DNA from: a virus
Lineage: Duplodnaviria > Caudoviricetes
Reading direction: 5' to 3' (one strand)
Virus record (IMG/VR): IMGVR_UViG_3300031911_000003
Coordinates: 11,196-75,195 of that record
Length of the DNA stretch: 64,000 bases
Part shown: positions 7,595-64,000 of the stretch, in pieces
Layout of the letters: the number at the start of each line of letters is the position of its first letter
How positions within the stretch are numbered: the first letter of the stretch is position 1
Program-made: the position numbers and the translations under genes
The notes under the pieces: model-generated
Seen by the model: the letters and a program-made list of their open reading frames with translations, nothing else
The model's database searches: none
Told to the model about the DNA's origin: nothing

Positions 7595-8320
7595 TCAGGT
7601 CAGCGACGACTTGTAGAAGGCCGCGCCCTCGACGAAGTAGCGGATCTCATCCGCGTAGGTGAACCACTCGCCGGACTCGCGCAGGTGCGCGAACCGACGG
7701 TGCAGCGTCGTCTCTAGTTCGGTGCCTCCTGGCAGCGTCAGGAGCAGCGTGAGCTTAACGGAGGCCGACGTCTGAAGGGTGTCGAAGCGCTTCTCAACGT
7801 TGGAGCTCGTCCCGATCTTCAGCTTGCCGTCGGCGCTGAGCACGCAATAGACGCACTCACCGCCCTGGCTCAGCTTGTCGTCGGCCGCAGCGCGCCTGGC
7901 GCGCTCCACAGAGCGGTAGCGCTGCGTCTCTTGCCGCAAGAAGGCGTCTCGCAGCGCGCCATATTCTGCCGCCTCGTCGTCTCGTAGATCGGGAACTAAT
8001 TCGTCGGCGTCCCGCACCGCCTGACCCGAGAACCGATCGAGCAGGCGCGCCGCGAAGTTGATTGCCGTGCTCTTGCAGTCGCACCTGTGTTCGCCGCCGC
8101 AGGGACACCGCAGGATGAGAGTCTTGTCGACGCGCCGGACCTCGCAGCTTTGGCCCCGCACAGACAGGCGGTCGCTCCCCAGTCCTGTCGCCGACGAGCC
8201 GCAGGGCAGCGCGATATCGGCTCGATCTCGGGCCGCCCGCGCGAAGCAGGTGTGTTTGAGCACCCAACGCGCTTGCTTTTCTAAGAAAGGTCGGAAGTTG
8301 TGACTGTATCTGTGGTCCAC
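7595..8320 (-). CDS. T5orf172/GIY-YIG-type nuclease domain protein with Cys-rich N-terminus
   Basis: C-terminal VYCVLSADGKLKIGTSSNVEKRFDTLQ...ELETTLHRRFAHLRESGEWF. Confidence 0.85.
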   Translation of the reverse strand: MDHRYSHNFRPFLEKQARWVLKHTCFARAARDRADIALPCGSSATGLGSDRLSVRGQSCEVRRVDKTLILRCPCGGEHRCDCKSTAINFAARLLDRFSGQAVRDADELVPDLRDDEAAEYGALRDAFLRQETQRYRSVERARRAAADDKLSQGGECVYCVLSADGKLKIGTSSNVEKRFDTLQTSASVKLTLLLTLPGGTELETTLHRRFAHLRESGEWFTYADEIRYFVEGAAFYKSSLT

Positions 8321-8324
8321 TGCT

Positions 8325-8744
8325 TCACATATTGAGCGCCCGCTTTACCTCTTTGAGGAAGCGTTTCAGCTCGGCTTTCTTGATCTCGTCGAGCTTTCTC
8401 TGCCACTTCTCGGGCAAGCCGCTCGTCGGCAGGTGCTCGTGCTCGCCGTCACCGTTTAAGAACTTGCTGTAGTAGACGTGCTGTCCGACGCGGACCCGAC
8501 GCCCCTCGTCAACTACGACGACGTCGTAGCCGTCCATGAGTAGGCCAGAATCCAGCATCGGGGCGCCACCACTTCTCGGCGCAGGAAAGCGCTTACCATA
8601 CACGTTTCGCCCCTGAACGTGTTGCGCTCGCAGTTCTTTGCGGACGTACTCAGCAAAGGTGCTAGCGATTCGCAGCTGTGCCTCTTTGGCTAGCCTGCGG
8701 ATCGCCCCGACGCCTTCGCCCAGACCGCGCCTAGTGATCGCCAT
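8325..8744 (-). CDS. Virion morphogenesis / neck protein (HK97 gp10 / Mu gpG-like)
   Basis: 'PMLDSGLLMDGY...VRVG..VYYSKFLN' resembles the L.DtG.L..Si...vG....Ya motif; in the late operon. Confidence 0.55.
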   Translation of the reverse strand: MAITRRGLGEGVGAIRRLAKEAQLRIASTFAEYVRKELRAQHVQGRNVYGKRFPAPRSGGAPMLDSGLLMDGYDVVVVDEGRRVRVGQHVYYSKFLNGDGEHEHLPTSGLPEKWQRKLDEIKKAELKRFLKEVKRALNM

Positions 8745-8910
8745 GGCGCCGCCTCTCGAACGTCACTTCCTCGCCACTGCGCCGGAAGACGCCTGCGCGC
8801 CGTAGCCTCAGACCGTCCGTGATGGCACTGAGCACTGCGTCGATACAGAGCCGCGCCTGCGCCTCCGAGCAGCGCAGCGAGCGCGCTACGGCTTCGACAA
8901 GTTCCTTCAT
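8731..8910 (-). CDS. 59-aa HU/IHF-like mini-protein lacking the DNA-binding arm
   Basis: Hand-translated MKELVEAVARSLRCSEAQARLCIDAVLSAITDGLRLRRAGVFRRSGEEVTFERRRHGDH*; ATGA-coupled to the upstream gene; below the ORF-track cutoff. Confidence 0.65.
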   Translation of the reverse strand: MKELVEAVARSLRCSEAQARLCIDAVLSAITDGLRLRRAGVFRRSGEEVTFERRRHGDH

Positions 8911-9281: not shown

Positions 9282-9649
9282 GACCGCACCTCGAACCGCA
9301 TGCGGCATGCCCACAGTCCGCGATGCAAGTGCTTCCCGACGTCACCCTCGACAATAGAGCGCGGCGTGACGAACGAGGCGACGAGCTCTTCGCCGACGCA
9401 GACGAGGTTCTCTAGCACCCGCGTGACGTGCGGCTGCCCTCCGCGGTCGCAGATACGGACGGTGACGCGGGTGGCGCTGCGCAGCCTGCCGAGGTTTTTC
9501 TCTACGGAGTCTTCGCCGTGCGTGAGCTGTACGAGCAAGACGACGTGCCGCGCGCCGACCTCTACGGCGTCAACGAAGGGGTACTCCTCTTCGTCTACGA
9601 GGAGCCTCGTGTCGCACAGCTCTAGTCTGTAGCTGTCAAGTCTTGCCAT
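9278..9649 (-). CDS. Hypothetical protein
   Basis: 123 aa, coupled start and stop inside the late operon. Confidence 0.5.
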   Translation of the reverse strand: MARLDSYRLELCDTRLLVDEEEYPFVDAVEVGARHVVLLVQLTHGEDSVEKNLGRLRSATRVTVRICDRGGQPHVTRVLENLVCVGEELVASFVTPRSIVEGDVGKHLHRGLWACRMRFEVRS

Positions 9650-9903
9650 CAGGTCTTCACTCCTCCAAGCGCCGCGACGATGCGCGTGAGCGCCTTCACC
9701 GTCTGCGCGAGTTCGAGAACTATGCCAGCGCCGACTACCTGGTAGACGGCGCGCTCTTCGTCCGACTGCGTCGGCGTTATGTCCTTGCCGGTGAAGGCGA
9801 GCAATCCCGCGAGCGAGTGGTACTGCGCCCGCATCACCGACTCGGGATCGGCATCGGGAATGCTCCCCGCCTGAACTTCAGCGAGGAGCTCTAGCGCTTT
9901 TTT
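9649..9903 (-). CDS. Tail assembly chaperone -1 frameshift extension (GT-like)
   Basis: An open -1 frame continues KKALELLAEVQAG... from the slippery site A AAA AAG at 9897-9903. Confidence 0.75.
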   Translation of the reverse strand, partial: KKALELLAEVQAGSIPDADPESVMRAQYHSLAGLLAFTGKDITPTQSDEERAVYQVVGAGIVLELAQTVKALTRIVAALGGVKT

Positions 9904-10433
9904 ACGCGGTCGCCTCCGTCGGCGCCGAGCGACATGAACCATCTGGTCGGCAGCACCTGCTCGACGGCGTCGCACATGCGGCGGCGCAAGAGCTCTAGCT
10001 TCGCGCGATCGGGGAACAGCACGGCGTTCAAGAAGTACTCACCTGCCGCGCGCCCGGCCTCGTCGGCGTCCCGACTCTTGGCCTTCCGCTCGAGGTCGCG
10101 GCGCATGGCCTTGACCTCCGTCGGCGTCATGCGCTTCACGATCGCCCCAGCGTAGAAGGTCGGGTGGACGATGGCGCGCACCACGTCGCGCTCGTCGGCA
10201 CCCTTAACCGTCTGGTTCTCGAGGCGCAGCCGCTCGTAGGCGGCTTCGGCGTCGGCGACGGCGGCGTCGTACGCCTCTTCCGTCACCTCGTCCTGCGCGT
10301 CGTCTTCCTGCTCGGGCAGCCAGCCGGCGTGCGTCGCCGCCAGGCACAGCACCCAGCGCCGCGTGCCCTTTAGCTGCGCCCACTCCTCGACAGTCCGAAT
10401 TTCCGGTTGACGTTTCGTATCCGTTTCGCTCAT
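9891..10433 (-). CDS. Tail assembly chaperone (G-like)
   Basis: Acidic helical 180 aa downstream of the tube gene, ending GTA AAA AAG CGC TAG; ACCATCC 5 nt upstream. Confidence 0.75.
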   Translation of the reverse strand: MSETDTKRQPEIRTVEEWAQLKGTRRWVLCLAATHAGWLPEQEDDAQDEVTEEAYDAAVADAEAAYERLRLENQTVKGADERDVVRAIVHPTFYAGAIVKRMTPTEVKAMRRDLERKAKSRDADEAGRAAGEYFLNAVLFPDRAKLELLRRRMCDAVEQVLPTRWFMSLGADGGDRVKKR

Positions 10434-10491
10434 GATGCGGATGGTAGGAGGTACCAGATGACAGACAAATCAACGACTCAAGGATTTAAAA

Positions 10492-10731
10492 ATGATCATC
10501 GTTAATCGAAAGGCTTTACTTATGAGTTTGGCTGATGCAAAACGCTTTGCCGACTCGAAGTCGACGATGCCGTTTGTGATCGGTGTGAACGGCAAGTACG
10601 CGCTGCAGGCTCTCGAGCGCATCGACAGCGCTCTGGTCTGGATCGGCATGAACGACGAGCTTGATCCGCTCGTGTTCAAGGCGAGTCGTTGCGCGGAGGA
10701 TCTCCACGTCGTCATGCCGATGAGGCTGTGA
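10492..10731 (+). CDS. 79-aa mini DNA polymerase III beta-clamp (DnaN) derivative
   Basis: N-terminus IIVNRKALLMSL...KSTMP resembles a clamp domain start; the rest IGVNGKYALQAL...DELDPLVF...HVVMPMRL matches the DnaN C-terminus (E. coli IGFNVSYVLDVL...YVVMPMRL). Confidence 0.75.
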   Translation: MIIVNRKALLMSLADAKRFADSKSTMPFVIGVNGKYALQALERIDSALVWIGMNDELDPLVFKASRCAEDLHVVMPMRL

Positions 10732-10781
10732 GTACACTGGGCCGAATGGGTCACGGATACTCTTTCGATGATTATCTTCGA

Positions 10782-11279
10782 CTAGCCGGCGTTGACGCCG
10801 ACGATGTCGGCGAACTGCGGGATGATCTTGCCACCCGAGCCGAACTCGATGTAGCCGCAGTAGCAGGGGATGTCCATACCGAGCACCGCCGGCCCGGTCG
10901 AGCTGTCGAAGTTCCACTCGTTGACGATTACGTACAACGTGTCCGTCTCGACGACAGCGGCCTCGGGGTGGACGAAGCTCACCGTGATGACGATGAAGCC
11001 CTCGAACATGCCCTTGCCAGGGATCGAGGCCACCTGCCGGAAGGCGTCACGCGCCGCCCGGTTGATGCTGAAGCTCGCCTCGTAGCTGAGCGCCCCGCGC
11101 GTCACGCCCTGCGGCAGCGGCGAGGTACCGCGGGCCTCCTCTCGCGAAACCTTGGCCGAGTAGCTGATCTTGGTGAACTGCGTGAAGAGCCGGTCGCCGG
11201 GAAACTTCGCTTCGATGTCTGCGTGCTGATACTGAACGTTGTTGAAGCCGGGAGCGAACCGGCGGGTAAGCTGCGCCAT
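10782..11279 (-). CDS. Tail tube protein
   Basis: 165 aa from ATG 11279 (MAQLTRRF...ISYSAKVSREEARG...GALSYEASFSI), beta-rich, immediately after the sheath gene. Confidence 0.8.
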   Translation of the reverse strand: MAQLTRRFAPGFNNVQYQHADIEAKFPGDRLFTQFTKISYSAKVSREEARGTSPLPQGVTRGALSYEASFSINRAARDAFRQVASIPGKGMFEGFIVITVSFVHPEAAVVETDTLYVIVNEWNFDSSTGPAVLGMDIPCYCGYIEFGSGGKIIPQFADIVGVNAG

Positions 11280-11284
11280 CTGAG

Positions 11285-14125
11285 TTACACTCCCACTGTG
11301 AAGGTGTCTGAGATCGTGACCGCGAAGCCGATGGTTCCATCGAGCTTGAGCACCTTGGCGAGCGGCACCATGGTGAGCGACCAGGCGACGGTCAGCGTTC
11401 GCGCGGTCTGCTCGATGCGCGAGACGCCGAAGGTGAAGGCCGACACGTGGTTCACGCCGTTGTCGTTGATGAGGCCTCCGTTGTTGAGATCGCCCCGCAC
11501 GCGTCGCTCGATCTGCTGCGCCTGCACCTCGGCGAGCGTGCCCGTCGCAGGATCGGTCAGCACGTTGGCGTTCAAGATGACGGCCAAAGAGCGATTGACG
11601 CGGCGGAACGCCCTGTTCATGACGCGCCGTCGCTCCCAGAAGATGAAGTCGTTGCCGTCGTCTACGAGGTTCAGCGTCTGCCGGATGAATACGCCATCGT
11701 ACTCGACGAGCGTACGGCCCGTGGTGACGTTCTGCGCGTGCAGCTCGAGGAGCGCCGAATCCGACTCCCACAGCGCGGCCCGCTCCTCGGTGCCTTCGGC
11801 TACGGTGTGGAGTCCCGTACCGGGGATCGCGAACTGGGTGCCGTCGGCTGTGAGTACGCTGCAGAGCGTCTGGTTCGGCGACTGGCTGATCACTACGTTC
11901 ATGCAGCGCGCGAGATCCAGACACGCCCGGCTCTTCTGCATCTGGCAGCCGTACAGCGTCACGATCGTGTCCTGCTCACCTCCCGCGTAGTTGACGATGC
12001 CGCCCGAGCTGCGCGGCGAGGGCAGCGCGGCGTTGAAGTTCGCGGCCCACAAGAGGTCGTCAGACTGCAGCTGCGTCACGCGGTAGAGGCCCTGCACGGT
12101 TCCCCAGAGCGGCACCTTCTTGCTGTCCTTGACGTCGCGGAGCCACGCCTCGAAGACCTGGTAGGTGGCGTTGTCGCAGTCGTCCTGTACAAGGTGGACG
12201 TGCTCGATGTTCTGTAGGGTCTTCAAGTACGTCGACTTCAGCGTCTCGAGCGCGGCGGAGAGTCCCGCCAGGTCGAAGCGCGGCGGCGTCGTGTAGCTCG
12301 TCCACTCGTCTCCCGCCTCGACGGCGACGGGCAGCGAGACGAACTCATCCCACGCTCCAGCGATCCCGAGGCCCGTCCCGGTGACGGTTGGCGCCGTCAC
12401 GAGCGCCAACACGGAGGCGGGCGCGGTGCCGTAGAGGGTCACGAGGTCGTTCGGCGTCGAGGTTTGCGCGCCGTTGGTGTCGGTGGCGAGCGTTACCGTG
12501 ACGTCGAGCCCCGCAGCAGTGATGCCCGCGGCGGTGCTCTGACCCGAGGCGACTTGACGGACGCGGACACCCGGTTTCTTGGCCGTCCAGAGCGTACCGC
12601 CGTTCGGCGCGAGCCCCGGCCCAGCACTGGCGACGAGCCCTAGGCCCGTGCCTACGGTGTCCACTGCGTTTACGAGGAGCCGCGCGGCGAGCGTGCCGGC
12701 CGAGACGTCCGTCTCGAAGAAAGCCTTCGCGGCGGCTCCCGTCGTCGTCGCGGCGGCGTCCACACCGCCCGCGAGCGGCGTCGCCCCGTGCGTGTCGCCC
12801 GGCGCGGCGAGGACGTTGCCGTTCGTCCCGCCGGTAGCGGTGACGCTGCCGAACGTCGTGCTGACTGGGAAATGGGCCTTGACGTTGGCGACGGTAGTCA
12901 CGCCGTCGTCGTAGTGGACGGTGATCGCGTTGCCGATGACAGACACGGCGTCTGTCCCATCCTCCACGAATGCCACGGTGATCGAGTTTCCGCCGGCGCC
13001 GGCCGTCGCAGAAGCGAACGTCAGCCCAGCGAGGTTGCCGCCGAAGCCCGCGTAGCTCGCCGCCACCGCGCCGCTCGTCGCGGTGGTGAAGGTGACGGCC
13101 GAGCCAACGACGCCGAAGCTCGGCGTCGCGTTGTCCGTCGTCGGGACATCGACCTCGATCGAGGCTCCGGCTGTGGCGAACGTCCAGACGGTGTCCCCGT
13201 TGACGGTCGCGCCCGCCGCGCGATAGGCACCGTAGAGCGTCTTGGCGACGGTGCCCTGAGCAAAAGTCGCGCGGATGCCGGTGTGCCAGCGGGTGAATCC
13301 GCCCGGATGGGTGTACAGGTCCAGCTCGCCCAACTGCGGGATCGTGAAGGCGGGGGACCACGTCACACCGTCGTCCGCCGACCAGCGCACCTGCGGCTGC
13401 TGCGCGCCAGAGACGGTGATCTGCCCGCCGCGCGTCGACTGGAAGCGCAGGTGGTCGAAGCGGTCTAGCGGCCCGGCGTACTCGAAGCTGAGAGCCGTCG
13501 TGCCGACGGGGTCGACTGGGGCGCCGCCCGAAGTCTGCGTGCGGTAGCGCACCATGGCCTTCACGCGCTCGCCGGCCGCGGTGCCGAAGGTACCGGGGCC
13601 GTTCACGGCGTAGGCCGCCTGCCGCGCCTGCCCGGCCTCGTCGAGGTAGTCGACGACGGCGACGTGTGCGACGGTGCCGGCGCCGTGCGTGCTCGTGAGC
13701 GGGAGCGGTGATGGGGGCGTCGCGAACCCGCCCTGGCGATCGACAGCCGCACCGCCGGGGATCGGGTCGGGAGCGGCGGCGAGCCCATCGAAGGTGGCCG
13801 CCGCGAGCGACAAGACCGAAGGCGATGGGGCGGAACCCGCGGGGCGCTTGACGACGGAGCCGAACGTCCCCGGCTCGGCGGCCAGCACCTGGAAGCCGTA
13901 GACCGTGCGGTTGCAGTTCGCGATGTGCGGCCCGCTGTCGCTCGCGAGGGGGCCGACGCCGAGGCGGTTCACGGTCGCAAGTTCCCGCATGACGACGGGC
14001 TTGCCAACGATGTACGCCGAGGCGACGCCGATCTTCAGGATAGTGCCTTCCTGCGTGTCGGCTACGGTGGACAGGTTGCCGTTGAGCTCCCTGATGTTCA
14101 AGGCCGGGTTCGGAGTGCCGCTCAT
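11285..14125 (-). CDS. Contractile tail sheath protein
   Basis: 946 aa; sheath C-terminal domain 'ERRRVMNRAFRRV...IERRVRGDL...LTVAWSLTMVPLAKVLKLDGTIGF'; followed by the tube gene. Confidence 0.88.
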   Translation of the reverse strand: MSGTPNPALNIRELNGNLSTVADTQEGTILKIGVASAYIVGKPVVMRELATVNRLGVGPLASDSGPHIANCNRTVYGFQVLAAEPGTFGSVVKRPAGSAPSPSVLSLAAATFDGLAAAPDPIPGGAAVDRQGGFATPPSPLPLTSTHGAGTVAHVAVVDYLDEAGQARQAAYAVNGPGTFGTAAGERVKAMVRYRTQTSGGAPVDPVGTTALSFEYAGPLDRFDHLRFQSTRGGQITVSGAQQPQVRWSADDGVTWSPAFTIPQLGELDLYTHPGGFTRWHTGIRATFAQGTVAKTLYGAYRAAGATVNGDTVWTFATAGASIEVDVPTTDNATPSFGVVGSAVTFTTATSGAVAASYAGFGGNLAGLTFASATAGAGGNSITVAFVEDGTDAVSVIGNAITVHYDDGVTTVANVKAHFPVSTTFGSVTATGGTNGNVLAAPGDTHGATPLAGGVDAAATTTGAAAKAFFETDVSAGTLAARLLVNAVDTVGTGLGLVASAGPGLAPNGGTLWTAKKPGVRVRQVASGQSTAAGITAAGLDVTVTLATDTNGAQTSTPNDLVTLYGTAPASVLALVTAPTVTGTGLGIAGAWDEFVSLPVAVEAGDEWTSYTTPPRFDLAGLSAALETLKSTYLKTLQNIEHVHLVQDDCDNATYQVFEAWLRDVKDSKKVPLWGTVQGLYRVTQLQSDDLLWAANFNAALPSPRSSGGIVNYAGGEQDTIVTLYGCQMQKSRACLDLARCMNVVISQSPNQTLCSVLTADGTQFAIPGTGLHTVAEGTEERAALWESDSALLELHAQNVTTGRTLVEYDGVFIRQTLNLVDDGNDFIFWERRRVMNRAFRRVNRSLAVILNANVLTDPATGTLAEVQAQQIERRVRGDLNNGGLINDNGVNHVSAFTFGVSRIEQTARTLTVAWSLTMVPLAKVLKLDGTIGFAVTISDTFTVGV

Positions 14126-21372: not shown

Positions 21373-22485
21373 TTAGACTGGGCACAGCACACCTCTCGTT
21401 TCTACCTGGAAACGCTGCTCCTCGCGCAGCTCGACAAAGAACCACAGCACGCCGCACAGGGCTAGCGCTAGCGACACGCGTACGGCCAGCCGCGGCTCCG
21501 CGCTGCCAAGCACTCCGGCGAGTTTGCCTCCGACGGCCATAGAACTCAGCCACAGCGCTGTAGCGACGGACGCCAGGCGGCGCGGCACGAGCGACGTCGA
21601 GAGGTCTAGGCCGAGCGGTGAGATGAGGACTTCACCGACAGTCGCGAGGAAGTACCAGCCGACCAGGCCGGACATTGAAGAGTCGATGCAGAGCAGCACG
21701 AAGCCGGCAGCGAGCGACAGCATAGCTGCGACGAGGCGCGAGCGCAGGCCCGTCCAAGCGGCCAGCGGCGTGCAGAGAAGCAGCGCGGCGAAGACTGGGT
21801 TCAGGGTGCTGACGCTCTCGGGCATGTCGGCGCGCACGACATCGCGCGCCCACAGGACGAGGCTCGTCTGCTGCTGCTGGAACCCGGCGAAGAACAGCAC
21901 CGCGCCGACGAGCAGCACTGCCAATCGGCCCCACTGCGGGCGCTCGATGTGGTCTAAGACGCTCTCGGCGATGCTCTGCCGCGGTGGCGCGAGCTTCGAC
22001 CAGTTCGCGAGGAGCACGGCGACGCAGGCGGCAAGCGCCAGCGCGGCGGCGCCGAACGCAGCCGACCAGCCATAGCGGTAGTGCAGGTACCCACCGACTA
22101 GGGTGCTCGGCATCGAGCCGACTTGGATCGCGGCGTAGTAGCGACCGAAGGCGCGAGTGCGCTCTGGACCGACGGGGAACAGGCTCCCGAGCAGCGCCGA
22201 CAGGCACGGCTTGAACAGCCCGCAGCCGAGCGCGAGCAGCGGAATCGGCGAGCGGTCAAGTGCCGCCGTGGCGTACCCGCACAAGAGCAGCGACGCGCCA
22301 GCGAAAACTGTCGCGCGCAGCGAGAAGCGCCCGAGGTAGCCGCCGAGGAGCGGCGCGAGGTAGCCCCAGAAGAGCAGCGTGCCGACTTCGGCTGGCGAAC
22401 GCCACAGCGCGAGCGCACCCAAAAATAGATACCAGGCGAAGCGCTCTAGAGCGATGGCTGCGAGGATTGCGCGGTAGGCAATCAT
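21373..22485 (-). CDS. POT/PTR2-family proton-dependent oligopeptide transporter (MFS), compact
   Basis: ALERFAWY (ExxERFxYY-like), GLFKPCLSALLGSLF, AFGRYYAAIQVG and GEVLISPLG motifs; many TMs; ATGA-coupled start. Confidence 0.88.
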   Translation of the reverse strand: MIAYRAILAAIALERFAWYLFLGALALWRSPAEVGTLLFWGYLAPLLGGYLGRFSLRATVFAGASLLLCGYATAALDRSPIPLLALGCGLFKPCLSALLGSLFPVGPERTRAFGRYYAAIQVGSMPSTLVGGYLHYRYGWSAAFGAAALALAACVAVLLANWSKLAPPRQSIAESVLDHIERPQWGRLAVLLVGAVLFFAGFQQQQTSLVLWARDVVRADMPESVSTLNPVFAALLLCTPLAAWTGLRSRLVAAMLSLAAGFVLLCIDSSMSGLVGWYFLATVGEVLISPLGLDLSTSLVPRRLASVATALWLSSMAVGGKLAGVLGSAEPRLAVRVSLALALCGVLWFFVELREEQRFQVETRGVLCPV

Positions 22486-22697
22486 TGCTTCTCTTCTTTC
22501 TTTCCAAAAGCCAGCCAGCACGGCGATACGCCGAGGGCTTCGGCGAGCCTGCGCACCTGCTCGACGCTGGCAGCATTTATACCTTGTTCAATTTGATGGA
22601 TCGTCGTGAAGCTTGGGATTCCCGCGCGCTGCGCGAGATTGCGCAGCGACAGCCCCTTTTCGAGACGAGTAGCCTTGAGGCGCGCGGCGACGCTCAT
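22482..22697 (-). CDS. XRE-family HTH regulator
   Basis: RLKATRLEKGLSLRNLAQRAG...IHQIEQG...LAEALGVSPCWL. Confidence 0.9.
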   Translation of the reverse strand: MSVAARLKATRLEKGLSLRNLAQRAGIPSFTTIHQIEQGINAASVEQVRRLAEALGVSPCWLAFGKKEEKQ

Positions 22698-49092: not shown

Positions 49093-49382
49093 CGCCGGCA
49101 CCCGGCACACCTGCCGCCGTTGCACTTCCCGCACGATATCACGACGTTGCCGAGCTCGTACTTGCCGCCGTCGTGGCCGCAGATCGGGTAGCGGTCGACC
49201 TGCCACCTGCTCGACGAAGCGGCGAAGCTGCGCTTGCCACAGTGGTGGCAGCGCACGCGGAGCTGCCCACGGTGCAGGTATCCGTGCGCCGAGACGAGGG
49301 CCGCGCGGCGTCTGCGCCTGGCTTCAGCGCTGCCGCGCGTATCTACGCTGCGGTGATCCTCACCACCACGCTTCCACATCAC
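49089..49382 (-). CDS. Small HNH endonuclease
   Basis: CHHCG...VDRYP..GHDGGKYELGNVVISCGKCN. Confidence 0.8.
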   Translation of the reverse strand: MMWKRGGEDHRSVDTRGSAEARRRRRAALVSAHGYLHRGQLRVRCHHCGKRSFAASSSRWQVDRYPICGHDGGKYELGNVVISCGKCNGGRCAGCRR

Positions 49383-50308
49383 CGCACCTTCAGGATCTTG
49401 TCGACGAGCTGCACCACGTTCTGCGGCAGCGGGCCGACGACGAAGAGGTACTGCCGTAGGAAGCTCTCGAGCTGTCGAACCGAACGTTGCAGTAGCTGTA
49501 GTACTGACTCCGACATCATGGCCTCGAAGTCAACCAGCTGCGCCTCGTCGCACTCCTCGATCTGCACGTCGAACGTCGTCGAGGGCAACTGCTCGCCGAA
49601 GTTGCCCGCGACGTAGTAACGGCAGGTCCGCATCTTCTGATGTGAGGCGTCGTGCGGCACACACACGACGTCGGCCGGATCGACGCGGCAGACGACGATC
49701 CGCTCGCCGCAGTAGCTGCGTGCATACTCCAGGCTCCCGACGTGTAGCCCCGTGTGACAAGCGTGGTTCGGATCGTCGCTAATCTCGTTGCGCGGCATCT
49801 GCACCCAACTGCCCGGTCTGTTGCAGATCTTGCCGCTGTGCTTGTCGAGATAGTCTGCGCGCACACCCTTGTACGCGAGGAAACGCCCGTCTGGCTCGAT
49901 GGGTATGCCGACGTGATCGAGGAAGGCCCACAGGCTGTCGACGCTGCGCTTCGACGGGTTTTGCGCCAGGCGCTCGTGGAAGCGGAGCAGCGGCTCGGAG
50001 TCGCCCCCGACCTCCTTCGTCTCGAACACGCGTCGCGCGAACCCGCCGTGCATTGGCTTGCCGTCGAAGAGTAGTTCCGCGCCGCGCAGCTCGAATCGCG
50101 TGCGCGACCACGCGGCGACGCTTTGGGCTGCACTCGCGATGTGGCGCACAGCCTCCTCGAAGTCCCGTCGTTCGAGGGCCGCGCGCAACTGCGGCGCGTT
50201 CGGCGCGTCACTCCGCACCACGTAAGTCTTGCCACAGTGGACTATCGTGATTTGATCTTTCGTCGCCGTGAATCGCATGTATCTGTCATCCTTATATATT
50301 CGAGCCAT
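49379..50308 (-). CDS. rIIB: rIIB-like protein
   Basis: NPSKRSV..LWAFL, DGRFLAYKGV, MPRNEI, CHTGLHVG and VDPADVV.VP motifs. Confidence 0.92.
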   Translation of the reverse strand: MARIYKDDRYMRFTATKDQITIVHCGKTYVVRSDAPNAPQLRAALERRDFEEAVRHIASAAQSVAAWSRTRFELRGAELLFDGKPMHGGFARRVFETKEVGGDSEPLLRFHERLAQNPSKRSVDSLWAFLDHVGIPIEPDGRFLAYKGVRADYLDKHSGKICNRPGSWVQMPRNEISDDPNHACHTGLHVGSLEYARSYCGERIVVCRVDPADVVCVPHDASHQKMRTCRYYVAGNFGEQLPSTTFDVQIEECDEAQLVDFEAMMSESVLQLLQRSVRQLESFLRQYLFVVGPLPQNVVQLVDKILKVR

Positions 50309-52122
50309 TGAATCGAGTGCTTATCGACCAGCGACCGGAGGCCGTACGTTTTGAGCAGCGGATATTTCCCGAGTGCCGCAGCAACTACAGCCTTGCGCGA
50401 TGCCGGATCATCTGGTAGCCGCTGCGACAGCCAGCAAACTGCACGGTCTGTGTAGCGATGCGGCTTCGCTGCCCTCACGAGCAGTTGCGAAAGCGGGTGC
50501 TCGGCTCCAAGCGTTGCGGCTACCTTCGCCACATCGCTCTCGTCGACCTCACCGATCTCCGCCACCCAACGGAGCCGCTCGACGTCCTCGCGGGCGCCAG
50601 GCTGGCCAGCGAGCACTTCGGCGAGGACGGTCATCCACTGGCCGAGCTCGACGCCGACTCGCACCTTCTTGTAACCGTAGACTTCTGGCATCTCGAGGCC
50701 GAACGCACTGAGCAGGTCGCGGCACTCATGGATCTGGTGGTAGTTCGTGTCGAACCTGTCGAGGTGGACGTACAGGTCTTCAGGCTGCGGCGCGCGCTCT
50801 ACCGCCTCCCAGTTCGACGACAATGGGCGCTTGAACTCATAGGTGCAAAGTCTGAACATGCTGCGCCGCGCGTTCGGGTTCGCGCCGCGCCTGGGTGAGC
50901 GCTCTGGTCGCGTCCAAGACAGCTCCGAAGTCTTTACTATCGGGATGCCCTCGATGCCCGCAGCTCTGACAGCCGCCGCCACCGCGGCCTCTTCAGGTGG
51001 CCTGTGGTCATAGCCGTAGACGACGTAGTCCGTCGCTGACAGCGCGAAGCCTTTGAGTCCGCGCCTGTCGTCGCGCAGAACGATGCGCGCCGCATCGTCG
51101 AGCTCGATCGTTTCTCGCACCTTGCGACCGACTTTGAGTGTGAACGACCCTGAGATCGAGTATTTGCCGTTCACCCGCGGTATCAGCGGCAGGTCTAAGC
51201 CACCGTACTTCGACAGCGCGAGCTTCTGCGTCCACGGCGACAGCGATTCGACGCTGCGAATCAGCTCGAGCACGAAGCCGTCGATCGCCGCGCAGATCGC
51301 CGCTTCGAGAGCACCGCGCGTCTTCTCGCTGTACTTGAGCTGCTCGCGCGAGGCCGCGATGTGCAGCGCGCCGATCTCGAAGCGCAGCGCGCAGCCGACG
51401 TTTCGCGCGTAGTGTGGAAGCTTAAGCTGCGACAGGTCGATGGGATACGGCACGCAGCCCATGACTGCGGTCCACCTGCCGTACGGCTTTGGCGTCCAGC
51501 TGACGTCGGGTAGTTTCGCGCAAATATCAGGCAGCGGGTCGAAGTACTTGAACAGGTTCTCGGCCTTAGACCCGAACTCGCCGAGGTCTTCCCGTCGCAC
51601 CGCCACCTGAATCTCGAGGCCGGTGTCGTCGCTGTCGAACTCGTCGAGAAGGCGAACCTCACCACGCTCGCTGACGTCGAGCGTGCAGACGTACGTGCGG
51701 CACTTGCCCTCGCAGCGCGACACGACGGTGAAGCTGTCGGCGTAGGCGAAACCGCTCTTGCTGCCAATACCGAGCATCCCGACCTGCCCGCTGTCCGCGC
51801 GCTTCGTCGAGGCGCCGTACTGCGTGAAGAGCTCGAACACCTCCCGCTTCGAGAGGCCGCGCCCGAAGTCGCGAATCGAGAGCGTCTGGTCCTCGAGCGT
51901 CGGCAGCCTGACTCGGATCGGCACGTCGCCCTTGCCCGCCTCGCGGTGCGCGTCCCAAGCGTTGGCGCCGTACTCGCGCAATACCGCCAACACCTTGTCG
52001 CTGTAGAGCGTGTCGCGCAGCACCGTCATGAGGTGTGCCTCGTCGCCGCGCGAGATGCCGAAGCCCGCTCGCTCGCCCGAGTCGCAGGAGTCGACGCTGC
52101 GGTCGAAGGTCTGCGGGATCAC
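50242..52122 (-). CDS. rIIA: rIIA-like protein (GHKL ATPase N-terminus)
   Basis: LYSDKVLAVLREYGANAWDAH, IRDFGRGL, YGASTK and GMLGIGSKS; GTGA-coupled start; precedes rIIB. Confidence 0.92.
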   Translation of the reverse strand: MIPQTFDRSVDSCDSGERAGFGISRGDEAHLMTVLRDTLYSDKVLAVLREYGANAWDAHREAGKGDVPIRVRLPTLEDQTLSIRDFGRGLSKREVFELFTQYGASTKRADSGQVGMLGIGSKSGFAYADSFTVVSRCEGKCRTYVCTLDVSERGEVRLLDEFDSDDTGLEIQVAVRREDLGEFGSKAENLFKYFDPLPDICAKLPDVSWTPKPYGRWTAVMGCVPYPIDLSQLKLPHYARNVGCALRFEIGALHIAASREQLKYSEKTRGALEAAICAAIDGFVLELIRSVESLSPWTQKLALSKYGGLDLPLIPRVNGKYSISGSFTLKVGRKVRETIELDDAARIVLRDDRRGLKGFALSATDYVVYGYDHRPPEEAAVAAAVRAAGIEGIPIVKTSELSWTRPERSPRRGANPNARRSMFRLCTYEFKRPLSSNWEAVERAPQPEDLYVHLDRFDTNYHQIHECRDLLSAFGLEMPEVYGYKKVRVGVELGQWMTVLAEVLAGQPGAREDVERLRWVAEIGEVDESDVAKVAATLGAEHPLSQLLVRAAKPHRYTDRAVCWLSQRLPDDPASRKAVVAAALGKYPLLKTYGLRSLVDKHSIQWLEYIRMTDTCDSRRRKIKSR

Positions 52123-52514
52123 TGCAGGTCCTCGTCTTCCCAACCTTCGCAGAGGTCGCAGAGCACGAAGAAGCCTGTAATACTTCGAGATGCCATACTT
52201 TCGGGGAGGCCGAACCAAGCATCGTTGAGCAGATCCAAAATTACAGACGCGGCACCCAGTCGAAGGGCTTCATCGTAGCGCTCGACGGGCTTACCTTCAA
52301 AATTCTGCTCGATGTCGTTGCAGATGACATTACAGGCGTCTTGCGCTGCTCGCGCAGTGACAGGTGTTGAAAGTTGCATCGCGCGTGCGGGCATTTCGAC
52401 CTGCAGTGGACCTACTGCGACGCTCACCTTCGATGCTGGGTGGTACTTCTCAACAATGGCACGCAGCGCGACGGCGTTCGCCTTAACTTTGTCAAACCAT
52501 TCAGCAGAATTCAT
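52119..52514 (-). CDS. Hypothetical protein
   Basis: 131 aa leading the rII operon. Confidence 0.55.
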   Translation of the reverse strand: MNSAEWFDKVKANAVALRAIVEKYHPASKVSVAVGPLQVEMPARAMQLSTPVTARAAQDACNVICNDIEQNFEGKPVERYDEALRLGAASVILDLLNDAWFGLPESMASRSITGFFVLCDLCEGWEDEDLQ

Positions 52515-61186: not shown

Positions 61187-61579
61187 ATGTACCTAGCACT
61201 CATCCCCGACGCTGACACGATAAAGGTGCTGAAGGCGTACTCGCCCAACCTACCCGAAGACGTCCACCTGACCGTCATCCACAGCAAGGTCATCTTCGAC
61301 ATCGAGAAGCTGCCGTTGCCCGACTCGGTGAAGCTCCCGATCACCGCGGCAGTCGCAGGCGCTGCCGTCTTCGGCGGCAAGAACAAGGTCAACGTGCTCA
61401 AGTGCCACGCGACGCCGCTTCTTGAGCTGCGCGCCTGGGCTGAGCGCGTCCTTCTAGCGCAGCAGCTCTCCTGGTCGTCGGAGTGGACCTTCTCGCCACA
61501 CGTCACCGTCGGCAAGCAGGTGAGCTCCGCGACGAAGTGGAACTTCCTGCGCTTCTCGCGTCTGGAGTGGCGTCTGTGA
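61187..61579 (+). CDS. 2H phosphoesterase, Acb1 (T4 57B)-like
   Basis: Two HxT motifs (VHLTVIHS, PHVTVG); own leaderless-type promoter TTGACG-N17-GACGCT-N6-ATG. Confidence 0.75.
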   Translation: MYLALIPDADTIKVLKAYSPNLPEDVHLTVIHSKVIFDIEKLPLPDSVKLPITAAVAGAAVFGGKNKVNVLKCHATPLLELRAWAERVLLAQQLSWSSEWTFSPHVTVGKQVSSATKWNFLRFSRLEWRL

Positions 61580-64000
61580 TGGCCTTGCTCCCCTTCGTCG
61601 TGCTGCGCGATGACCCGCGCTGGCCGGCGTGCCTCGACGAGCTTCGCGCCGTGAAGCGTGGCGTCATCGGGCTCGACACTGAATTTTTCGAGGACAAGGC
61701 ATTGCGCGCCGCCGCCGAGGCTTCGGGGCGCACGAACCTCGACGACAATTTCGACCCCTGGTCTACGCGACTGCGCTGCGTGCAGGTCGGCCTGCCGTCC
61801 GGCCTGTGCATGGTCGCGGACTTCGGGTCGCAATTCGACTGGGCGCCGTTCGCAGAGTTTCTGGCCATCCTCCGAGAGAAGTGCGCGGATCCGCGCGTCG
61901 GTAAGGTCGGCTGGTCGCTTGGCACCGAGGCGCTCATACTGCGCCGGCACGCCGACGAGTTCGGCTGGGGTGACTGGGTGCTGCGACGCGGGCGCGACGG
62001 CATGCTCGCGTCGCAGGTGCTCTGGGCCGGCGTCGCCGCGAAGTCGAAGCGCTGGACGGAGCAGGGCCTCGTCATGCAGCAGACGCTGTCGCACAGCTTC
62101 GCCGCGGCGGCCGGGCGGCTCGGCGTAGAGATCGACAAGGATCAGCAGGGTAGCGGCTGGGGCTGCGAGGAGCTCGCTGCCGAGCAGCTCAACTACGCTG
62201 CGCTCGACGTGTACCTGCTACCGACATACGTGGATTCTGAGGGCCGGACGCGAACCGGCACGCTCGGAGAGACGTGGCGGCGGCTGTGCGAGGAGGCGCA
62301 GCGGCAGGGTGTGCTCGACAGCGTCATCGTCGAGTGCGACGCCGCGCCGGCCTTCTACGAGTGCGAGTGGCGCGGCACGCCGCACGACGACGCGCAGTGC
62401 GCCAAGCTCCAAGCGCAGTACAAGCTCGCGGGCGACGACCTCTACGCGCGCGTCTCTGAGCTCCTCGGCGGGGTCCCTGTCGAGGGCGACGGCAGCCAGA
62501 AGGAGACGGCGCTGGCGCTGACGCGCTGGTTGCGAGAGCACGGCTATCTGCACGCGTCGCTCTTCAGGTGGGAGCGAAAGGTAGACGGCCGAATCCAGAC
62601 CTCACGCGCCTTCGACGTCGAGCAGCCCGAGAAGGCGCCGAAGCCGAAGAAGCCGACGGGCAAGCCCAAGGAACCGAAGCGGCTGAAGCGAGACAGCGAT
62701 CTCGACTACTCGGTTAAGGTCTACGCGTTCCAAGACGCGATGCTCGAGTGGGACGCTAAGCAACGTCAATACGCGGAAGAACTCGCGGCGTGGGAAGCTG
62801 AGGCCAAGCAGTCGAAGTGGCGCTTCTGGCCGGAGATGGGTGAGGCGGCGCTCGCGTCTTTCGACTCGTGCGAGCCAGTGAGTGCGCTCATGGAGGCGCG
62901 CAGCTGCCGCAGTACGGAGCGCGTACTCGAGAAGCGCCGCGCGAACAGCTGGGCCGGCAGGAATTGGCGCCCGGCGACGCGCTGCCGCTACTGGCAGATC
63001 GCGGGGGGCTTCGACAGCGGGCGCGGCGAGAGCGACTCAGCCGGCGGCGGCACTGGGCGCAGCTCGAGCAGCAAACCGCTGAACAACCAGAACGTGACGA
63101 CGCTGCCGCTCGGAAAGCAGCGGTCGAAAGAGCTTGGCCTCGACAACGTGCGAACGTGCGTGAGGCCGCAGACACTATTTCGGGAGGGAATCGGCCCTGT
63201 AGCGCGGCGTGCGATGATCGTCGGCGACTTCTCGCAGGCGCACATGCGCATCTTCGCGCAGACGTCGCAGGACCCGGCGCTCCTCGAGGACTTCCGCGCC
63301 GGTCGGGACGCCCACGTGCGCCTCGCTCGTGACTTCTTTCGGGCAGCGAATCCGGGGCACTACTTCGCCGATAAAGACTTCGACTATTGGTGCGAGGTGT
63401 ACCAGACCGGCAAGTCGCATCCCGAGTACGACCTGGTCAAGTCCCCGCGCGGCCCATCGAAGAACGGTAACTATAACTTCCTGAATATGGGCGGCGCGCA
63501 GAAGGTCCGCCAGATCGCGGAGACGGCGCCTGAGCCAGTCCACTTGCCAGCAACGATCGAGGTCGACGGCCTGCAGCGCGATCCTTGGGAGATCATTCAG
63601 GAGCGCTGGCGCGAAACGTACGCGACCGGCTACGCCTGGCAGCGCGACGTGATCCGACGCGCGAATAGAGTGCAGCACACCTTCGCCTTCTGCGATGGCG
63701 AGTACGGAGAGGTCTGGAGCGCCGACGGCAAGCGGCGGCTCTATCTCCTGAAGGAATGGTCCGTCCCGAAGTGGGCGGAGTCGCTGGACGACGGCCGCTG
63801 GAGCGTGAAGGGCACCGACGCGCTCGCTGGCATCATGCAGATGTCGGAGGCGAACGCGCTCAAGATCGCCGCTGCGCTGTGCGTCGCAAAGTTCGACGCC
63901 CACCCGGAGTGGGATGCGTTCGTCTTCAACATCGTCCACGACGAGCTCGACGCGGAGTGCGCCTACGAGCACCGTGAGGCCGTCGCGCGCTGCGTCTTCG
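61579..64000 (+). CDS. polA: Family A DNA polymerase with 3'-5' exonuclease (3' end outside window)
   Basis: Hand-translated: GLDTE (ExoI), YAALDV (ExoIII), TGRSSS..N, DFSQ (motif A), R...K...Y (motif B), VHDEL (motif C); absent from the ORF track because there is no stop. Confidence 0.93.
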   Translation, partial: MALLPFVVLRDDPRWPACLDELRAVKRGVIGLDTEFFEDKALRAAAEASGRTNLDDNFDPWSTRLRCVQVGLPSGLCMVADFGSQFDWAPFAEFLAILREKCADPRVGKVGWSLGTEALILRRHADEFGWGDWVLRRGRDGMLASQVLWAGVAAKSKRWTEQGLVMQQTLSHSFAAAAGRLGVEIDKDQQGSGWGCEELAAEQLNYAALDVYLLPTYVDSEGRTRTGTLGETWRRLCEEAQRQGVLDSVIVECDAAPAFYECEWRGTPHDDAQCAKLQAQYKLAGDDLYARVSELLGGVPVEGDGSQKETALALTRWLREHGYLHASLFRWERKVDGRIQTSRAFDVEQPEKAPKPKKPTGKPKEPKRLKRDSDLDYSVKVYAFQDAMLEWDAKQRQYAEELAAWEAEAKQSKWRFWPEMGEAALASFDSCEPVSALMEARSCRSTERVLEKRRANSWAGRNWRPATRCRYWQIAGGFDSGRGESDSAGGGTGRSSSSKPLNNQNVTTLPLGKQRSKELGLDNVRTCVRPQTLFREGIGPVARRAMIVGDFSQAHMRIFAQTSQDPALLEDFRAGRDAHVRLARDFFRAANPGHYFADKDFDYWCEVYQTGKSHPEYDLVKSPRGPSKNGNYNFLNMGGAQKVRQIAETAPEPVHLPATIEVDGLQRDPWEIIQERWRETYATGYAWQRDVIRRANRVQHTFAFCDGEYGEVWSADGKRRLYLLKEWSVPKWAESLDDGRWSVKGTDALAGIMQMSEANALKIAAALCVAKFDAHPEWDAFVFNIVHDELDAECAYEHREAVARCVF

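Follow-up and report, generated by a model that had tools for sequence, protein, structure and literature searches.

What is a 79-codon open reading frame that encodes both ends of a DNA polymerase sliding clamp, with the middle missing, doing in the tail module of a phage? The frame, which we refer to as the mini clamp, lies in an uncultured virus record of 75 kb with an estimated completeness of 61%. The window, by which we mean the whole 64,000-nucleotide stretch that was analyzed, is the right-hand 64 kb of this record. We considered how such a gene could have arisen and what, if anything, its product could do.

The phage is contractile-tailed. Family searches identified a sheath, a tube, a Mu-like portal, a Mu-like major head protein, and a large terminase in the window. 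Further phage genes encode rIIA/rIIB-like proteins, ThyX, a primase-polymerase/helicase (also called primase-helicase), and a family-A DNA polymerase (Table 1). The 658-aa HATPase_c_3 protein beside the rIIB-like gene is likely rIIA. Within the 75-kb record, estimated to be 61% complete, no clamp loader, Pol III alpha, or Pol B was found; a second clamp gene was not found either, and at this completeness its absence is not shown. The record also yielded no Mor/MuC homologue. Relatives of the phage were retrieved neither through its tube protein in IMG/VR nor through its sheath protein among GenBank phages.

The mini gene is oriented opposite to the sheath gene, the tube gene, and the next late gene (9891-10433). 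Its GC content is 55% overall and 44% in its 5' part, compared to 64-69% in the flanks and 63.5% in the window. A first-pass annotation had described the gene as inverted, AT-richer, and inserted between the tube and chaperone genes, and the first two features are borne out by these values. The third concerns the 180-aa ORF downstream, for which family searches gave no match. Near the end of this ORF lies a canonical -1 slippery site, A AAA AAG at 9897-9903 (minus strand), and a -1 shift at this site leads into an overlapping 108-aa ORF (9649-9975). A slippery A AAA AAG that opens into an overlapping ORF is a hallmark of the tail assembly chaperone G/GT pair; the downstream neighbor of the mini gene is therefore a tail chaperone, and the placement between tube and chaperone stands. 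The mini ORF has the codon-position GC pattern of a coding frame (GC1/2/3 of 0.56/0.36/0.73). Two antisense ORFs, 10470-10754 and 10516-10917, were considered as real genes and rejected, as they show no coding-type codon-position GC pattern. The stretch from the tube gene to the tape-measure gene holds several accessory ORFs, including a GIY-YIG/T5orf172 gene, and no repeats that would suggest a mobile cassette were found flanking the mini gene.

Table 1. Coordinates of the mini clamp gene, its candidate signals, and other features of the window
Feature	Position	Strand	Remarks
Mini clamp ORF (P0001), 79 aa, in-frame internal-deletion form of a phage DnaN-type clamp	10492..10731	+	Stop codon 10729-10731
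Mini residues 1-27: beginning of clamp domain I (strand beta1, helix alpha1; PF00712 in relatives)	10492..10572	+	
Mini residues 28-79: last beta-alpha-beta-beta-beta motif of clamp domain III, ending VVMPMRL	10573..10728	+	
Candidate ribosome-binding site, AAGGA	10480..10484	+	7 nt before ATG 10492; read from the sequence
Upstream ORF, 15 codons, in another frame than the mini ORF	10458..10505	+	TAA 11 nt past the mini ATG
Sigma-70-like promoter match, TTGACG-18-CATGAT	10407..10436	+	Weak; the only one facing the mini gene
Tail assembly chaperone G, 180-aa ORF	9891..10433	-	By position and slippery site
Tail tube gene, convergent with the mini gene	10782..11279	-	Follows the sheath gene; PHROG 4579 tail protein, E 7e-4
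Tail sheath gene	11285..14125	-	PHROG 907, E 5e-11
T5orf172/MUG113 (GIY-YIG-like) gene	7595-8320	-	Between the tape-measure gene and other tail genes
POT/PTR2-family peptide transporter	21373-22521	-	PF00854, E 2e-28
rIIB-like gene	49379-52218	-	PHROG 609, E 2e-62; adjoins the 658-aa HATPase_c_3 protein
Family-A DNA polymerase	61483-63999	+	Cut by the right contig end; record incomplete on that side

The likeness of the mini clamp to DnaN is far beyond chance, and chance similarity was ruled out. Profile searching recovers the claimed relationship: residues 25-79 match positions 311-365/368 of the PHROG 947 profile, "DNA polymerase processivity factor" (E 4.7e-8). Pfam PF02768 gives E 1e-3 at 19.2 bits, under its 27-bit cut-off, and solved bacterial clamps in the PDB give E 8e-4, with sequence matches to their C-terminal 55-75 residues. 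An exhaustive phmmer search of 1.84 billion representative proteins found its best match (E 6.7e-22) in the 454-aa clamp P0002, and the relatives that it returned are 447-536 aa long (E 7e-22 to 3e-14), with two matched stretches each. BLASTP against P0002 and P0003 places these stretches in separate, collinear matches. Mini residues 1-32 align with the N-terminus (59% identity and 2e-9 for P0002; 8e-11 for P0003), and residues 26-79 align with the last 54 residues of both proteins (63-64% identity; 1e-23 and 2e-20). The initial description of the frame as the start and the extreme C-terminus of DnaN with the middle removed was thus exact. In a multiple alignment, the mini clamp covers both clamp ends with a single gap of ~375 residues.

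The two homologies meet at one residue. The N-terminal homology extends through KSTMP and the C-terminal homology starts at (L/S)PFxIG, placing the junction at a shared proline, P27|F28 (KSTMP|FVIG), a small correction to the earlier assignment of the join after V29. It is essentially certain that the mini clamp is an in-frame internal deletion of a long phage DnaN-type clamp gene. The simplest origin is an in-frame deletion of ~1.1 kb at this microhomology. The ancestor was a full-length phage DnaN-type clamp gene of ~450-540 codons, situated in an inverted, lower-GC accessory cassette of the tail module. One deletion joined codon ~27 directly to the final 52 codons and left the native start, the native stop, and a usable ribosome-binding site in place. 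We consider it extremely unlikely that the clamp middle is only seemingly absent through a sequencing or assembly artifact, such as a collapsed or chimeric contig. An identical mini protein is present on three contigs of up to 78 kb from three sources (JGI/IMG, ENA, and Logan), the independence of the samples being uncertain, and the in-frame join involves one shared residue, where no repeat is present that could have caused a collapse.

The nearest relatives of the mini clamp are three-domain, DnaN-type clamps of 447-536 aa on uncultured phage-like contigs, and they meet all three Pfam clamp-domain cut-offs (PF00712, PF02767, and PF02768). These long phage clamps (P0002-P0005, P0031-P0033; PHROG 947) share 54-65% identity with the mini clamp over both segments that it retains, as well as the C-terminal ending VVMPMRL. 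They differ in having three complete domains. Most (among P0002-P0005, P0031, and P0033) also have ~60-100 Cys-rich residues with CxxC, possibly a zinc ribbon, inserted between domains I and II; this insert falls in the deleted part. The start of P0002 coincides exactly with the ATG position of the mini clamp. The other six of the seven full-length relatives carry an N-terminal extension of 17-32 residues rich in Thr, Ser, Asp, Lys, and Gln. Scans of viral, metagenome, and genome contigs for the clamp family returned only distant relatives at 20-36% identity, and clamps of GenBank phages reach at most 31% identity to P0002. Whether it is a young remnant or is kept by selection, the mini clamp points to long phage clamps carrying a Cys-rich insert as an uncharacterized lineage.

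The first-pass annotation had further proposed a folded fragment, and structure prediction agrees. An AlphaFold2 model computed with an alignment of the relatives has a mean pLDDT of 89 and a pTM of 0.75, a confidence that leans on an alignment made of full clamps. Its elements run in the order strand (residues 2-5), helix (6-21), looser linker, strand (30-32), helix (34-43), and three strands. The model superposes on domain III of solved bacterial beta clamps (E. coli 2POL, T. maritima 1VPK) over 78 residues (Z 9.6-9.8, rmsd 2.6-2.7 Å; E. coli residues 255-366), and query-normalized Foldseek TM scores are 0.75-0.80. As the 78 residues are spread over a 112-residue span, ~34 domain residues are without a counterpart, namely the three strands after the first helix of the domain. 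The strand-helix from domain I is predicted to sit where domain III has its own, homologous strand-helix. A single-sequence model from the ESM Atlas is weak (pLDDT 0.54, pTM 0.37) and also retrieves domain-III proteins. The predicted product is a single truncated clamp domain, approximately two thirds of one domain. According to the model, it would keep the two inner helices together with the half-sheet that ends in the VVMPMRL strand and in an intact clamp lies against domain II, and would lack the three strands that contact the partner protomer. Unlike bacterial DnaN with its three domains, it would thus be a partial domain, lacking domain II and a complete partner pocket and forming no ring.

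What could such a product do? A clamp ring requires six domains, and the three tandem domains of a protomer are absent from the mini clamp, whose 79 aa hold one partial domain. In E. coli beta, the ring is closed by late strands of domain I (~R103-L108) against first-motif strands of domain III (to ~I305); the interface position can be compared in the cross-linked clamp R103C/I305C (3PWE), which is among the structure matches listed. The deletion has taken both of these elements from the mini clamp, the second-motif strands in domain I and the first-motif ones in domain III. Judged from the model, it can neither build a ring nor encircle DNA, and it cannot serve as a processivity factor; with domain II and both ring-closing edges missing, the earlier statement that no ring could form holds. 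Two functional suggestions made with it fare less well. A decoy for clamp partners would call on the partner pocket, which in E. coli beta is built for the most part from domain II residues and the linker between domains II and III, with the C-terminal strand V360-L366 adding to it. Domain II and the linker are gone, and the VVMPMRL strand is the only pocket piece left. A poison of clamp assembly would need the native ring-closing elements of domains I and III, and as both are deleted a native-like poisoning contact is unavailable.

Any binding by the mini clamp would accordingly need a new kind of contact, for example the capping of an edge strand. E. coli provides one comparison in beta*, an internal-start dnaN product that spans domains II-III and still builds a clamp-like oligomer. 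Like the mini clamp, beta* is a natural shortened clamp product; it is, however, an N-terminal truncation that oligomerizes, whereas the mini clamp is an internal deletion with one partial domain that cannot. The Mu C protein carries clamp-binding motifs and acts through the host clamp (PMC12867686). Factors of this kind show that a phage whose late genes are Mu-like can use or disturb the clamp, but Mu C binds the clamp by short motifs and is not clamp-derived. Our literature search found no study of a mini clamp built from N- and C-terminal pieces, and a paper on inhibitory fragments does not treat DnaN (PMC11831152).

A search for homologues of the same length had been suggested, and none of the same build appeared. 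A word-based search of 5.8 billion clusters for proteins of 43-139 aa returned nothing but the identical mini sequence. The exhaustive phmmer search of 1.84 billion representatives likewise contained no other protein with this N- plus C-terminal build. Its three short matches (50, 56, and 94 aa) are all C-terminal-only pieces and probably fragments. A search for longer proteins found full clamps only. The mini clamp is a singleton among about 15 billion proteins and is not a member of an established mini-protein gene family.

The retained parts were compared with those of intact relatives. Of the columns invariant in four full-length relatives, the mini clamp keeps 30 of 31, the sole change being from Glu to Asp. 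When the full-length proteins are left out in turn and tested likewise, they keep 31 of 33-36 invariant columns. The mini clamp is 65% identical to both P0002 and P0003, which are 59% identical to each other. In Tajima-type relative-rate counts with outgroups, the changes found in it alone are fewer than those unique to its partners (e.g., 4 vs 9), and its terminal branch of 0.23 is the shortest among the deep lineages (0.32-0.57 for the others). Among the aligned relatives, no mini-specific hydrophobic-to-polar changes were seen on the newly exposed face. These protein-level rate tests give no acceleration for the mini clamp and are unable to date the deletion. Judged by sequence, its retained parts show no visible decay, which fits either a deletion that is recent on the time scale of the family or constraint on both pieces.

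Decay could also have begun outside the retained parts, in the signals for initiation. The strongest Shine-Dalgarno (SD) sequence of the cassette, AGGAGG at 10446-10451 (plus strand), is located 6 nt before a different start codon, ATG 10458, and the 15-codon frame that begins there stops 11 nt after the mini ATG. ATG 10458 could be the stranded original start of the clamp gene, given that six of the seven full-length relatives, all except P0002, have an N-terminal extension (17-32 residues) of a flavor like that of the upstream peptide. A one-base change in the A-run before 10492 would then have severed the body of the gene from its signals, and the 79-aa ORF would be translated poorly or not at all. 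We regard such an already decaying remnant as very unlikely. The similarity of the upstream peptide to the extensions is too short to test, and P0002 starts at exactly the mini ATG. Translation of the mini ORF could just as well be coupled to that of the upstream ORF overlapping its start. Finally, AGGAGG is the reverse complement of a pyrimidine-rich stretch beside the late box of the chaperone gene (ACCATC, 10440-10445, minus strand) and could be a by-product of that box on the other strand. Of the decaying remnant offered as an alternative in the first-pass annotation, one part survives, in that singleton status fits a remnant; the other does not, as the retained parts show no decay, and a young deletion allele is preferred.

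In our view, the mini clamp is probably a deletion allele that arose recently in evolution and is most likely neutral or close to it; we do not read it as a clamp decoy favored by selection. This reading is based on the uniqueness of the mini clamp and on retained parts that look like those of intact relatives. It accounts for the way the mini clamp matches three-domain clamps in two collinear parts, one at each end, and for the lack of any homologue of the same build. The 30 of 31 invariant columns and the short branch are as a recent deletion predicts, and the newly exposed face carries no substitutions that look adaptive. That an accessory clamp could be lost is plausible, as the phage encodes a family-A polymerase and a primase-helicase of its own, and searches of the 75 kb turned up neither a clamp loader nor Pol III alpha. 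Accessory genes also crowd the tube-tape measure region. Against a neutral allele, the intact frame, the P0002-type start, and the plausible SD suit a live gene, although one in three random deletions keeps the frame, and deletions of this kind are noticed only if in frame. The endpoints leave a topologically coherent unit by the AlphaFold2 scores, which is unexpected for most random deletions, and purifying selection would explain the absence of decay equally well. Phages usually purge useless DNA, and the same protein is found on three contigs, though these may not be independent samples.

An alternative is a functional mini-protein born by deletion, made early under its own signals and acting in a dominant-negative manner through its free half-sheet edge and C-terminal strand. 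It might cap the open domain III edge of a protomer of the host or of a competing phage, replacing domain I, or it might hold a partner that recognizes the clamp C-terminus. The frame, start, and SD are intact, the fold is predicted with confidence, and all 78 modeled residues superpose on domain III (Z 9.8, rmsd 2.6 Å). The mini clamp keeps family-invariant residues (30/31), and its rate of evolution is not raised. Phage accessory genes are typically placed as the mini gene is, inverted and at lower GC within a late operon, and the late box directly before the chaperone gene suggests an operon arranged around the insert. We nevertheless hold this account to be unlikely. The protein is a singleton among about 15 billion, and it has lost domain II, the greater part of the partner pocket, and both of the native elements that close the ring. 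Its exposed face bears no adaptive changes. No intrinsic terminator was found between the convergent mini and tube genes, where hairpins are no better than those of shuffled sequences; the sole promoter match is weak, and the strongest SD belongs to another frame. A distinctly unlikely, more specific proposal is that the mini clamp is a phage-made clamp microprotein, produced by one in-frame deletion and kept for clamp interference. Here it would block the open edge of a clamp protomer, whether of the host or of a rival phage, so that the ring stays open, or it would titrate a factor that reads the clamp C-terminus. Late-gene control would be another possible target under this proposal, as late transcription in T4 and Mu is clamp-driven.

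Dominant-negative microproteins are known from plants. If the mini clamp is kept by selection, it would represent a new phage route to clamp interference and a bacterial-virus counterpart of these microproteins; under the interference reading, it would be a natural case of gene birth by deletion that yields a dominant-negative fragment. If it is only a young remnant, as we favor, it would offer a clean snapshot of the loss of a phage accessory gene. It would also be a natural experiment in which, by prediction, the first strand-helix of domain I stands in for that of domain III.

The late box mentioned above is one instance of a motif, (G/C)ACCATC, that occurs ~7-10 nt upstream of the start codon in many late and structural genes of the phage. 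It is also present upstream of the starts at 893, 2215, 3019, 7582, 14125, 19113, 37096, 40491, and 52563, and in the terminase ORF it lies ~28 nt before the listed TTG. The motif is often embedded in pyrimidine-rich sequence with no SD. Its appearance is that of a late promoter or of an initiation element with hardly any leader.

Two smaller observations were made along the way. A distant full-length relative (36% identity) adjoins a dUTPase gene, which hints that the family is normally found among nucleotide-metabolism genes; this relative is too distant to place the source of the mini clamp. In the late operon, a 59-aa ORF at 8731-8910 (minus strand), itself a singleton by word search, weakly matches HU over its first two helices (PF00216, E 0.003, residues 1-34) and has a very short arm region.
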